Source: a virus (Duplodnaviria > Heunggongvirae > Uroviricota > Caudoviricetes). From it: 64,000 nucleotides of DNA. Position 1 is the first letter of the stretch. Every line of letters begins with the position of its first letter. Shown piece after piece: positions 37,434-47,043 of the stretch. The notes under the pieces were generated by a model. It was not told the DNA's origin and searched no databases. It worked only from the letters and a program-made list of their open reading frames with translations. The position numbers were made by a program, and so were the translations under genes. The stretch lies in IMG/VR virus record IMGVR_UViG_3300011202_000010, positions 114,589-178,588 of that record; one strand, 5' to 3'.

Positions 37434-38801
37434 TTACAAACCATATTGAGACACTATATTATTACCAACTCGATATATTACTTTTCTATTTTTATTATCA
37501 AGAGCTAATGAAGATCTTTCTCCTGTCGTGCAACTCCATACCACACGAGCCGCAGGAGAGAAAGGAACATTGTAATATAACCTTCTAAACTCATTCATTA
37601 TTGTTGGGAAATTGGCAGAGCCTAATATATGATCATTTAATTCACTATATACTTTTGCATTCGTTAATGTTTTAGGTATTCTAAACATATTTCCAATTCC
37701 AGCAGTAGCATAATCACCTAAATCACAATATGTAGCATGAGAAGAGCAAGCTAATTTACCTGTCCCCCAACTATAACCTGTTTTTAATACATAGTATCTA
37801 TCACTTAATATATTTGACATTTGAATAGCATTTACATGAGGTAAAGTTGTTAGTATCGTAGCTGGCATATTATATTGGTAATGTTCAAAACTACAAGTAC
37901 CTGTTGTAGTTTTATATTCATACCATTCTTCTACACCATCTAGACCACCATCACTTACATAGTACATACTTTTACTGGTCATCACCGCATCTATATTATT
38001 GGCAGCAGATGCTGATATACTGTTTGATATACTAACACTTGTTGATACACTTTTTGAAGCAGAAGCAGAGGCGCTTATACTTGATGAAATGCTTGAACTT
38101 ATAGATTTACTTGTTGAAATACTTTTAGATGCTGATGTTGAAGCACTTACACTCGCACTCACTGAGGCACTAACAGAAGTAGATACTGATGTACTTACAC
38201 TTTTAGATGTTGATACACTCGTAGATACTGAGGTGCTTATGCTCGTCGAAACGCTTGTTGAAACACTCGCTTTATAAACAGTATCTCCTTCATAATAACT
38301 TGAAAATATAATTCCTTCATTTAGCGAATTTTTACAAAATGTAACTATATCTGGAATAGATGAATCGCTATTTATTGTTTTTGAATCAGATTTTCTTATT
38401 ACACTTTTAAATAATGGTCTTGATCTTCCTACAAGGTCTGGACAGGATTTTTCTGTCACTTTATAATAAGTAATGTCATAAAATTCATTTGTTCCATCAT
38501 GATCTGTTATTGTTATTTCACCACCCCAAGGATTAACTAATCTATTCCCTTGCTTCATATTACTAGGCAGTAAATTACCTCCTAGAATCATATTTCTCCC
38601 TTCTTCAACACTTGAATACGATCCTTCTATCTTGTTCATAGCTTGCTGAATATACCCTAAGCCTTTTATTGCTGTACTTACTTTTTGCCTTTCTGACATA
38701 ACGTTAAATACCCAAAAAATAACAGCCATCAATGCTACTATAGCTCCTAAAGAGAGCATCATTTCCATTAAAGAAAATCCTTTACTTTTCCTTTTAAACA
38801 T
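37434..38801 (-). CDS. Large prepilin-type protein (455 aa) with a central Ser-rich dipeptide-repeat region
   Basis: N-terminus [32 protein letters not shown] (G/F/E prepilin motif). About 90 aa of (S-x)n: [27 protein letters not shown]... Globular domains on both sides. Confidence 0.75.
   Translation of the reverse strand: MFKRKSKGFSLMEMMLSLGAIVALMAVIFWVFNVMSERQKVSTAIKGLGYIQQAMNKIEGSYSSVEEGRNMILGGNLLPSNMKQGNRLVNPWGGEITITDHDGTNEFYDITYYKVTEKSCPDLVGRSRPLFKSVIRKSDSKTINSDSSIPDIVTFCKNSLNEGIIFSSYYEGDTVYKASVSTSVSTSISTSVSTSVSTSKSVSTSVSTSVSASVSASVSASTSASKSISTSKSISSSISSSISASASASKSVSTSVSISNSISASAANNIDAVMTSKSMYYVSDGGLDGVEEWYEYKTTTGTCSFEHYQYNMPATILTTLPHVNAIQMSNILSDRYYVLKTGYSWGTGKLACSSHATYCDLGDYATAGIGNMFRIPKTLTNAKVYSELNDHILGSANFPTIMNEFRRLYYNVPFSPAARVVWSCTTGERSSLALDNKNRKVIYRVGNNIVSQYGL
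38000..38270. repeat. Tandem degenerate hexanucleotide repeat encoding the SRR segment of 37434-38801
   Basis: AGT/ACT/AGA-rich repeats on the plus strand. The Leu/Asp/Glu-rich antisense ORF 37999-38277 is an artefact of this region. Confidence 0.7.
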
Positions 38802-38904
38802 AAACTAAAAACTCCTAAATAATTTTACAGAACATTCTTAATTACAATAGCCTGTTATTTTTAAAAGATCAAATAAATACAAATAATAATTATTATCATT
38901 TAAA

Positions 38905-38930
38905 AAAGGCTACCGGAGTAGCCTTTGATT
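38905..38930 (-). terminator. Intrinsic terminator
   Basis: GGCTACCGGAGTAGCC hairpin flanked by A and T runs. Confidence 0.55.
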
Positions 38931-45431: not shown

Positions 45432-45447
45432 TAGAGGAAATTAAATA

Positions 45448-47043
45448 ATGTTGAAAAGAGTTTTTATTGAAAAGGAATTCAGTGGTGGATACAAGTTTAG
45501 TATTGTGCTGGGCTTCTGTATGATATTTGTTTTATCTCTTATACTGGCTGATGTGCCTTATATGGATGACACTACACGTATGGATAATGGTTTAGGGCAA
45601 TGGGAATATGAAGGAAGACCTTTAACCACTATTCTTCTAGCATTACTTAACTTTAATATTAATCCAATATATAATATTGGACCTATACCATTAATATTTG
45701 GCACTTTATTCTTTGCATATACCGTTTGTTATGCCACTGATAAAATGCTTCCAAAGAAAAATTTGGTTAATATTTTACCTTTTACATTATTGGCATGTAA
45801 CCCATTTTTTATTCAAAACTTATCATATCAATTTGATTCTATCGGAAACATGTTTTCTGTTGGATTTATTCTTTTAGCTTTCTTTTATCAAAATAAATCT
45901 AAGATAAAAACCTATATTATACAATTGTTATTCTTGGTAGGTGTTAGCGCTCTTTATCAACCTACAAGTAATATGTATATTGGATTATTTTTAATTAACT
46001 TAATGTTCCAATTTAAAGAAACAAATAATAATATCTTAAAATCTACTATCTATCATGGTTCTATATATGTTTTATCCTGTATTATTTATTATTTAGGATG
46101 TGCTGCGGCTTTTAAATATGTATATCCTGACGTAGCTTTTAGAAGTGATATGATAGAACCCACAATAAATAGTTTATTCTTTAGTTATGAATACTCTATT
46201 AAAGAGTTTATAGATATGTGCCAGTCATTTAAAAGTGAAAAGATGTATTATTTAGCTAAAATCGCTTTTGGAATGATGTTCATTAATATTATTTATTTAA
46301 TTATTAAAAATAGTAAAAATAAAGAATACAGATTTGAGAGCAAATGGATATTAAGTATGCTTTTAATCACTCTTCCATTTACTTTATTCTTGACTATTTG
46401 GGGACCATTTATACTTTTAAGAGAATTGTTTTTTAATCCACGAGATTTCCCTATTATTGGTGTCTTCTTTATGGCGGGAGCTATGTCTTTCTATTTCTTG
46501 GATAAAAAAGGATATATTAACATGTTCTTTATTGGGGTTACTTTATTATCCGTTTGTGCATTCTCTTTTGTATATGGTAGTGCTTTAAAACATGATTTTA
46601 ATTACAAACGTTATGTTTATGACAGTATTGCTATGAAGATGGAAGATCATAGAGAAGAAATAGGTGATAAAAAAGTTAATCTCTATGGCAGAACAGCTAC
46701 TTCCTCATTTGTTAGACTTGCTTTAGTTGAACATAACTTTATTTATAGGTTAATGTATGCGGATAATACCAACTTCTTTAAAACATATAATGTAGGCGCA
46801 CGTAATATACCTAATCTACAAGGTGGATTTGTTTTAGATAATTTAGATGAGTGGAATCATATTTGTGATAATAAAATAAAACCTATGGTTTCTAATAGCA
46901 ATTTTGATATATTTAATTTCGATGATCATATATCTATATGGTTTAAACGCAGCCCTAAATTCTGCGACAATTATCCTCTTGAAACAGATATTCACTTCTC
47001 AAGAAAACAAGATGTCTATGATGCTACTTATGGCACACATTAA
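45448..47043 (+). CDS. Paralogous polytopic membrane protein (531 aa), candidate GT-C-type glycosyltransferase
   Basis: VPYMDDTTRMDNGLGQWEYEGRPLT. Roughly 45% identity to the upstream gene by eye. Confidence 0.4.
   Translation: MLKRVFIEKEFSGGYKFSIVLGFCMIFVLSLILADVPYMDDTTRMDNGLGQWEYEGRPLTTILLALLNFNINPIYNIGPIPLIFGTLFFAYTVCYATDKMLPKKNLVNILPFTLLACNPFFIQNLSYQFDSIGNMFSVGFILLAFFYQNKSKIKTYIIQLLFLVGVSALYQPTSNMYIGLFLINLMFQFKETNNNILKSTIYHGSIYVLSCIIYYLGCAAAFKYVYPDVAFRSDMIEPTINSLFFSYEYSIKEFIDMCQSFKSEKMYYLAKIAFGMMFINIIYLIIKNSKNKEYRFESKWILSMLLITLPFTLFLTIWGPFILLRELFFNPRDFPIIGVFFMAGAMSFYFLDKKGYINMFFIGVTLLSVCAFSFVYGSALKHDFNYKRYVYDSIAMKMEDHREEIGDKKVNLYGRTATSSFVRLALVEHNFIYRLMYADNTNFFKTYNVGARNIPNLQGGFVLDNLDEWNHICDNKIKPMVSNSNFDIFNFDDHISIWFKRSPKFCDNYPLETDIHFSRKQDVYDATYGTH

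Follow-up and report, generated by a model that had tools for sequence, protein, structure and literature searches.

We analysed 64,000 nucleotides of viral DNA (positions 114,589 to 178,588 of IMG/VR record IMGVR_UViG_3300011202_000010; hereafter the window) and found three consecutive genes whose products, of 455, 460 and 552 amino acids (aa), each join a type IV pilin module, a long (Ser-X)n repeat and a C-terminal domain. These genes lie close to a pair of membrane proteins of the GtrII family (PF14264), whose predicted fold is that of the GT-C glycosyltransferases. The locus is best read as a 'surface-remodelling' island of accessory genes in a Rak2/CBB-like jumbo phage. In the explanation that we favour, to which we assign a probability of about 0.45, the modular pilins of the phage would be assembled by the host, and the GT-C pair would O-glycosylate their serine stalks in the periplasm.

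Type IV pilins with a serine-repeat linker

A six-frame motif scan of the 64 kb returned eight class III signal peptides, which belong to the three long proteins and to five pilins of approximately 185 aa, and the motif K/R-G↓F-S-L-[LM]-E is common to all eight. The initial annotation of this DNA had recognised the three long genes and their type IV prepilin N-termini, and both are present as described: each protein starts with a short basic leader, followed by G↓FSLMEMM and a hydrophobic helix, with Gly at -1, Phe at +1 and Glu at +5. The five small pilins (starting at 23255, 24038, 47241, 48128 and 56743) are additional to its list. The class III motif is kept in the homologues of four related loci (L008, L009, L012 and L017), and in L013 the residue at -1 is Ala. 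Against the N-terminal methylation model PF07963, the serine-repeat pilins score below the cut-off and the small pilins above it; the latter also match the Pfam families PilS and Bundlin.

The first ~175 residues of the long proteins form a whole pilin, which can be aligned over its full length with a PF08805 pilin of 176 aa from a Salmonella plasmid (P0002) at 46% identity. Two Cys are invariant in the alignment, and P0002 terminates exactly where the repeat starts. A profile of this N-module weakly matches the structures of bundlin (1zwt, E 7e-4), TcpA and PilS. We therefore regard the long proteins, at the sequence level, as type IV pilins whose fold is predicted by homology, and the prepilin-like N-termini as true class III signal peptides on a PilS-type domain.

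The repeat that follows is strictly (S-X)n in a single alternating register, consists of 49-51% Ser, and has chiefly A, T, V, I, L, N or K at the X positions. This regularity is far beyond chance. The tracts measure 93, 175 and 259 residues in the 455-, 460- and 552-aa proteins, respectively. At the DNA level the repeats are imperfect and use every Ser codon family; the plus-strand 'open reading frames' (ORFs) within them are mirror artefacts that are limited to the repeat. An AlphaFold2 model of the full 455-aa pilin, built from a 6-sequence alignment, showed the repeat as disordered, between an N-terminal part with a long helix and a small sheet and an alpha/beta C-domain of low confidence. 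Its mean predicted local distance difference test (pLDDT) score of 41.5 was too poor for a fold search. A homology search with the C-terminal module of this protein (C-module A) returned a single fragment.

An exhaustive profile search with the pilin module collected 2,440 relatives, the closest of which are mostly long modular proteins. Several of these close relatives carry a serine repeat (P0025-P0029, P0031, P0032 and P0034), and in others the linker is a coiled coil, Gly/Thr/Pro-rich or Pro-rich. The proteins thus make up a family of type IVb-like pilins that are modular as defined by Raynaud et al. (PMC8179133), and the serine repeat is one of several kinds of linker in this family.

A tblastn search with a small pilin against ~50,000 phage genomes (INPHARED, CBB included) found no homologue; therefore, cultured Rak2-like phages lack these pilins. 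This result bears on a different role for the serine-repeat proteins, namely as virion fibres or whiskers in which the hydrophobic N-terminus is a structural helix. Relatives such as phage CBB are reported to have unusual hair-like tail appendages (PMC5259590). We nevertheless rejected this role as highly implausible, because canonical class III signal peptides precede a domain that is homologous to bona fide PilS pilins and because small pilins are missing from the cultured phages, CBB among them. In addition, membrane insertion and periplasmic GT-C chemistry clash with the assembly of virions in the cytoplasm.

Recombination of pilin modules around the repeat

The 460- and 552-aa proteins are 86% identical over 174 N-terminal residues, but their repeats are of unequal length and their C-terminal domains are unrelated. 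All-against-all BLAST comparisons of the N- and C-modules of nine serine-repeat pilins distinguished four N types and five C types, which occur in eight combinations (alpha-A, alpha-B, beta-B, beta-C, beta-D, gamma-A, delta-A' and delta-E). In one relative, P0025, the modules match those of the 552-aa protein and the repeat is shorter. Another, P0026, is identical to the 552-aa protein in the pilin module and through the first ~55 repeat residues and then continues with the repeat and C-domain of the 460-aa protein; exactly this hybrid would arise if the two tandem genes (window positions 38947-42238) crossed over within their repeats. P0026 comes from one short-read Logan contig of 17 kb and is either a real recombinational deletion between tandem repeats or a chimera of short-read assembly. 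Taken together, these comparisons show that N- and C-modules recombine freely around the repeat and that the cassette-like diversification proposed in the initial annotation, from the shared N-terminus and differing C-domains of the two longest proteins, is real.

In the related locus L017, the region 6711-7617 beside the serine-repeat pilin P0031 encodes an 89-aa N-terminal pilin fragment and a serine recombinase (Resolvase plus MerR helix-turn-helix domains), a hint that this relative may have an inversion system resembling a shufflon. Beside the pilin genes of the window, no recombinase was seen.

A pair of GtrII-family glycosyltransferases

The two membrane proteins score 124.9 and 93.6 bits against PF14264 (Glucos_trans_II; cut-off 30), and the Pfam scan gave no YfhO family. 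After the first transmembrane helix they contain an invariant motif, Y-x-D-D-x-x-R...W...G-R (Y49, D51, D52, R55, W63, G67 and R68), at the position that the catalytic acidic motif occupies in GT-C enzymes. An AlphaFold2 model from a 20-sequence alignment reached a pLDDT of 84 and a predicted template modelling score of 0.87, and a Foldseek comparison agreed with the GT-C fold. Sequence searches of the PDB gave spurious membrane-protein matches only, and a comparison of folds was required. On this modelling, the membrane proteins are PF14264 members with a GT-C fold and a conserved acidic motif, as the initial annotation had anticipated, and not transporters or O-antigen polymerases.

An exact look-up of the GtrII and pilin sequences of the window found none on record. 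Scanning IMG/VR with a single GtrII protein gave nothing, and scanning it with the GtrII alignment gave two distant temperate-phage relatives only. Among the ~50,000 deposited phage genomes there was no close homologue, the best match being a P22-type GtrC at 25% identity. In one related locus (L013), gtrB and gtrA directly follow the GtrII pair.

The window also encodes a secreted polysaccharide deacetylase (PF01522; 6743-7498, minus strand). Its 59%-identical homologue in L009 (7937-8656) lies only 1.3 kb upstream of the GtrII pair of that locus and may thus belong to the same glycan-modifying set.

Conserved linkage of GtrII and pilin genes

We compared seven independent contexts of GtrII genes of this clade, with at least 46% identity. 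A pilin gene lies within ~2.5 kb of GtrII in 7/7 contexts, despite rearranged neighbours and orientations. In the window (100%), the GtrII pair is divergent from the three serine-repeat pilins, with two protease genes between, and is followed by two small pilins; this layout recurs in L010 (98%). One serine-repeat pilin is divergent from the pair in L008 and two are in L012 (both 81%). In L009 (58%) the neighbours are other ones, and the pair is followed, on its own strand, by two serine-repeat pilins whose N-module is short and of a different kind. L013/L014 (54%) have two serine-repeat pilins divergent from the pair, and L015/L016 (46%) have a single GtrII gene with three or four small pilins before it. 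The paired arrangement is kept in L008, L009, L010, L012 and L013, and the GT-C gene is duplicated in every locus in which serine-repeat genes are next to GtrII.

As a control, 79 bacterial loci (1.0 Mb, mostly Pseudomonas) with distant GtrII relatives were searched for a class III motif or a serine repeat, and 0/79 contained either; a 37%-identical relative (L026) likewise had no class III motif and no serine repeat. Adjacency that is conserved through rearrangements thus supports the link between glycosyltransferases and pilins made in the initial annotation. The enzymes form a phage-specific, duplicated, pilin-linked clade of PF14264, and the linkage argues for a protein acceptor.

The two lipoprotein proteases had been counted as part of the same module. 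They are confined to the window and its 98%-identical twin L010, and they are absent from L008, L009, L012 and L013. They are therefore accessory, and we rejected them as a core component.

A jumbo phage, probably of enteric bacteria

The window has a G+C content of 29%, and most of its encoded proteins are without a known family. Several match PHROG families. The product of the ORF at 32511-33587 is 40-52% identical to proteins of Yersinia phage fHe-Yen9-04, Erwinia pEa_SNUABM phages, Serratia phage BF and Pectobacterium phage CBB, encoded in syntenic position at ~270 kb in those ~355-kb jumbo myoviruses, and the product of the ORF at 33656-34648 shows ~30% identity to jumbo-myovirus proteins encoded at ~262 kb, again in syntenic position. 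A 347,831-bp metagenomic scaffold has an 81%-identical GtrII homologue with neighbouring genes as in the window. In addition, 15.9-31.5 kb of the window is colinear with a 259-kb IMG/VR viral contig (L023), which has a small pilin at the matching place. Seven tRNA genes are present, one of them with a CUA anticodon. Given the tRNA cluster, the jumbo-phage homologues and the synteny with the IMG/VR contig, the window is part of a Rak2/CBB-like jumbo phage rather than of a bacterial chromosome, so the bacterial adhesin locus implied by the initial annotation is not upheld. A megaplasmid was ruled out on the same three observations. Of the hallmark genes for virions and replication (major capsid, terminase, tail sheath), none was recognised in these 64 kb of accessory DNA, no search aimed at them having been made. 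A megablast of positions 36000-50000 against plasmids and phages gave zero matches.

Outside the phage clade, the nearest relatives of the pilins are encoded on 30-45-kb plasmids with 34% G+C from Salmonella, Klebsiella, Citrobacter and Enterobacter. These plasmids (NZ_CP083778.1, our L011, as well as L001-L007 and L027/L028) are typed as 'non-mobilizable', have one or two pilin genes, and carry genes for ankyrin-repeat proteins, DotA/TraY, DUF927 and LPD7, with no pilus-assembly genes. Some Salmonella plasmid members encode a serine-repeat pilin of 515 aa that is labelled a hypothetical protein (ECT9551502.1); because the serine-repeat pilins of Salmonella enterica are deposited under this name, the family is unannotated in a major pathogen. 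From these plasmid relatives and the Salmonella enterica serine-repeat pilins, an enterobacterial host seems likely.

Two further records of the family come from long contigs: P0025 from a 541-kb metagenomic contig and P0175 from a 312-kb contig of a Salmonella enterica assembly. An Rfam match to SraL, an enterobacterial Hfq-binding small RNA, lies in an intergenic gap of the phage (30766-30878, minus strand; 46.7 bits against a gathering threshold of 39, full model length). It was not detected at the gathering threshold in the syntenic loci L008, L012 and L023, and therefore carries little weight as a host marker.

Proposed mechanism and alternatives

We propose that the phage encodes the subunits of a type IV filament, namely five PilS-like pilins of the ordinary kind and three modular ones, each of the latter made of a complete pilin module, a long (Ser-X)n stalk and a swappable C-domain that presumably binds a ligand. 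The subunits would be inserted into the inner membrane through Sec, and the short leader would then be cut off by a prepilin peptidase of the host. In the periplasm, the serine stalk would be O-glycosylated by the two GtrII-family GT-C enzymes, with a polyprenyl-phosphate sugar as donor that GtrB would make and GtrA would flip; these two proteins are phage-encoded in some relatives and would probably be supplied by the host in the case of the window phage. The subunits could then be polymerised or displayed via host type IV filament machinery, where the glycosylated stalk would provide a stiff, protease-resistant spacer for a tip domain with an adhesin or exclusion role, and recombination inside the repeat would shuffle pilin and tip modules. 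A more specific scenario is that a jumbo-phage clade, probably of Enterobacteriaceae, builds glycosylated adhesive filaments on infected cells via host type IV machinery, that a phage-specific GtrII branch was repurposed from O-antigen to O-glycosylation of the stalk protein, and that the modular tip pilins bear exchangeable receptor-binding domains on the serine-repeat stalk; we consider this full scenario somewhat unlikely.

Several points weigh against the mechanism. First, its support consists of sequences and models; the model of the 455-aa protein is too poor to establish the pilin and C-domain folds, and a Pfam scan of nine C-terminal modules found no credible family. Second, neither a prepilin peptidase nor an assembly ATPase, a platform protein or a secretin is encoded in the 64-kb window, so the pilus assembly set for which the initial annotation proposed a search is missing from this neighbourhood. 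Third, by tblastn, gtrA and gtrB are absent from the window and from most related loci. Fourth, serine-repeat pilins occur without GtrII in L017/18 and in the Salmonella contigs L027/28, within the 2.5-5 kb available, and the single GtrII gene of L015 adjoins pilins without a repeat. Finally, we know of no characterised PF14264 member with an acceptor other than O-antigen, and the published work on the family that we found agrees on this acceptor.

The last two points also fit the possibility that the GtrII pair sugars the host O-antigen or another envelope glycan and thereby masks receptors, either for superinfection exclusion or so that progeny are protected from adsorption to debris, with the pilins as independent cargo of the same hypervariable accessory island. 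PF14264 is the family of the serotype-converting enzymes GtrII and GtrC, to which the closest phage matches of the pair belong (P22-type GtrC), and its distant bacterial relatives are not pilin-linked. However, independence of the two gene sets is disfavoured by a linkage that holds in 7/7 contexts of the clade, survives changes of neighbours and orientation, and is missing from all 79 control loci, and by the duplication of the GT-C gene wherever serine-repeat genes adjoin it. We regard this possibility as unlikely, although far from negligible.

The lack of assembly genes in the window would also be expected if the modular pilins were membrane-anchored 'poison' subunits or periplasmic decoys that jam the type IV pilus, type II secretion or conjugative thin-pilus machinery of the host. 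A bulky, possibly glycosylated stalk and C-domain would then block rival pilus-dependent phages, conjugation or secretion during infection. Phages are well known to interfere with type IV pili, the short, generic leaders would suit any prepilin peptidase, and the pilin modules are nearest to those of enterobacterial plasmids. However, the phage clade has conserved five genes that resemble those of ordinary major pilins, which fits the building of a filament better, and swappable C-domains that diversify suggest the recognition of ligands over simple jamming. We consider poisoning improbable, and prefer glycosylated filament subunits that are assembled by the host.

Gene content of the island and its surroundings

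The features are listed in Table 1. A Shine-Dalgarno sequence precedes every gene of the island, and terminator-like sites are frequent (20 found against 4.0 expected from shuffles). The initial annotation placed the proteases and membrane proteins downstream of the pilins, which holds in plus-strand coordinates; in the direction of transcription, along the minus strand, the proteases lie upstream of the pilins, and transcription of the GtrII genes is divergent.

Table 1. Pilins, glycosyltransferases, proteases and terminator-like hairpins in the window
Feature	Position	Strand	Properties
Serine-repeat modular pilin, 455 aa	37434..38801	-	Pilin module alpha 1-175, (S-X)n 176-268, C-module A of 187 aa (58% identity with the C-module of the L013 476-aa pilin); N_methyl E 0.0023; Shine-Dalgarno aggag
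Serine-repeat modular pilin, 460 aa	38947..40329	-	Pilin module beta, (S-X)n 175-349, C-module C of 111 aa
Serine-repeat modular pilin, 552 aa (GTG start)	40580..42238	-	Pilin module beta, (S-X)n 178-436, C-module D of 116 aa; probable start ATG at 42229 (549 aa) from the Shine-Dalgarno position; TIGR02532 GFxxxE domain 17.3 bits (cut-off 16.3)
Lipoprotein trypsin-like serine protease (S1 type), 188 aa	42439..43005	-	Lipobox FLSG↓C, GMSGGPV; Trypsin_2 E 1.7e-8
Lipoprotein trypsin-like serine protease (S1 type), 206 aa	43061..43681	-	Lipobox LVG↓C, GQSGGPV; Trypsin_2 E 2.2e-11
GtrII-family GT-C glycosyltransferase, paralogue 1	43821..45431	+	PF14264 E 5e-36; probable start 43857 (524 aa), because of the Shine-Dalgarno position and 524-aa homologues
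GtrII-family GT-C glycosyltransferase, paralogue 2, 531 aa	45448..47043	+	PF14264 E 1.7e-26; 50% identity with paralogue 1
Small type IVb-like pilin, 181 aa	47241..47786	+	Encoded on the strand that carries the GtrII pair; PilS E 2.9e-11, Bundlin E 2.6e-10, N_methyl E 6.4e-7
Small type IVb-like pilin, 187 aa	48128..48691	+	PilS E 2.1e-19; probable start at the second ATG (48152), which a Shine-Dalgarno sequence precedes
Small type IVb-like pilin, 188 aa	23255..23821	-	PilS E 4.2e-18; outside the initially annotated interval; 61% identical counterpart at the syntenic place in L023
Small type IVb-like pilin, 186 aa	24038..24598	-	Class III motif; homologous to pilins of L011, L015 and L023
Small type IVb-like pilin, 186 aa	56743..57303	-	Inside the tRNA cluster; TIGR02532; 87% identical to an L023 pilin
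Terminator-like hairpin	37385..37411	-	After the 455-aa gene
Similar hairpins between genes	38905-38926, 40470-40507, 43032-43055, 47049-47072		

The protease genes match their initial description as S1-type lipoproteins. Just upstream of the pilin island, a gene at 34862-35965 (plus strand) encodes a membrane protein with a methyl-accepting chemotaxis signalling domain (PF00015, E 2e-32), which L008 and L012 do not have at this place. In the tRNA cluster (56382-60814, minus strand), the seven tRNA genes are intermixed with small ORFs and a pilin gene. The tRNA with the CUA anticodon, labelled tRNA-Pyl by ARAGORN, is an amber suppressor; in-frame TAG recoding was not evident among the ORFs of the window. 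Two paralogous families (10360-13635 and 678-5810, both on the minus strand) were not assigned a function: the first consists of three tandem, N-terminally anchored proteins of 333-375 aa that all begin with MILTKDK or MILTKNK, and the second of three proteins of 457-503 aa with motifs in common. Conserved cargo of the phage clade includes a radical-SAM protein (49388-50368), an M49 DPP III-like peptidase (52707-54593), an ankyrin-repeat protein (55423-56376), a PcfJ-like protein (7520-8653) and a protein with a GmrSD N-terminal (DUF262) domain (21434-22054).

Comparison with known systems

Known modular type IV pilins, such as PilB and PilC of Streptococcus sanguinis, CofB of enterotoxigenic Escherichia coli, TcpB of Vibrio cholerae and PilV of the IncI plasmids R64 and TP114, resemble those of the window in their N-terminal pilin module and C-terminal functional or adhesive module, and in both groups the pilin domain is of the type IVb PilS/bundlin family. 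Such pilins polymerise through the pilin module (PMC8179133). Their linker is a short loop, whereas that of the window pilins is a (Ser-X)n tract of 93-259 aa; in addition, the window pilins are phage-borne, have no cognate assembly operon nearby and have short leaders with Phe at +1. Both the PilV shufflon and the window pilins have diversified C-termini, which in the window apparently arise by recombination in the repeat, without a shufflon.

The likeness to the serine-rich-repeat adhesins of Gram-positive bacteria (GspB, Fap1, SraP and PsrP), which the initial annotation emphasised, holds for the long (Ser-X)n tract, with A, V, T, I or L at X, next to a folded domain that binds a ligand in the adhesins. 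Accordingly, the NCBIfam serine-rich and Sdr/Clf models match only the repeat of the window pilins. The stalk of these adhesins is glycosylated, as would be expected of that in the window. However, the window pilins are without an accessory Sec signal peptide, SecA2/SecY2/Asp, LPXTG and cytoplasmic GtfA/GtfB: no secA2- or secY2-like ORF was seen in the window, and the pilin C-termini have no LPXTG. Glycosylation, if any, would proceed by a periplasmic GT-C enzyme and a lipid-linked sugar in the window system, whereas it is carried out by GtfA/GtfB in the cytoplasm for the Gram-positive adhesins. The window pilins thus fail the definition of the Gram-positive proteins in all but the repeat, and the resemblance is an analogy only.

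The serotype conversion systems of phages such as SfII and P22 (GtrA, GtrB and GtrII/GtrC) have the same Pfam family and GT-C fold and are likewise phage-encoded, and the adjacent gtrA and gtrB of L013 recall them. The window GtrII proteins differ from them in sequence (~25% identity), in being a duplicated pair and in being linked to pilins rather than to an attachment site. Their carrier is a large, probably lytic phage, unlike the serotype-converting phages, and their acceptor is probably a protein rather than O-antigen.

Similar chemistry is known from the streptococcal GtrB/PgtC2 system and the Pgf system of Streptococcus mutans (PgfS, PgfM1 and PgfM2, with the adhesins Cnm, CnaB and CbpA), in which a lipid-linked monosaccharide donor and GT-C enzymes O-glycosylate extracytoplasmic, disordered Ser/Thr-rich regions and shield them from proteolysis (PMC12041528). 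In S. mutans, paired GT-C enzymes are encoded beside the adhesins that are their substrates (PMC12041528), as the GtrII pair of the window is beside the serine-repeat pilins. The enzymes of these systems belong to the YfhO family, are Gram-positive and chromosomal and act on substrates other than pilins, whereas the window pair belongs to PF14264. In Pseudomonas aeruginosa, TfpW is a GT-C enzyme that glycosylates a pilin (bioRxiv 10.1101/2020.04.19.049825), namely the group IV pilin, by arabinosylation. It is alike in its GT-C class and in the position of its gene beside that of the pilin; it acts in the periplasm on Ser/Thr and modifies few sites on a folded pilin with D-Araf oligomers, whereas the window system has a serine-repeat stalk.

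The haloarchaeal provirus SNJ2 encodes type IV pilins without machinery of its own, which hijack the host machinery for their assembly and dominate the cell surface (PMC12426801). SNJ2 is a temperate virus of archaea with two simple pilins, and has neither modular or serine-repeat pilins nor dedicated glycosyltransferases. In a partial coverage of the literature, in which absence of evidence is all that can be claimed, we found no paper on jumbo-phage pilins, on pilins with serine repeats or on GtrII enzymes that act on proteins.

If the proposed mechanism is true, the auxiliary genes of phages would include complete sets of pilus subunits, which have so far been documented only for an archaeal provirus, and glycoprotein stalks with serine-rich repeats would exist beyond the accessory Sec systems of Gram-positive bacteria, with the window pilins as the first Gram-negative or phage counterpart of these adhesins. 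A single pilin with two GT-C genes, with or without gtrA and gtrB, would be a testable system for the way in which disordered Ser-rich acceptors are selected by GT-C enzymes, and could reveal how repeats serve as recombination hinges for the swapping of adhesin modules. The GtrII family, known only for serotype conversion of O-antigen, would gain protein O-glycosyltransferases, the first protein-directed enzymes among its members, which would be useful in E. coli or Salmonella when Ser-rich carriers are to be glycoengineered.

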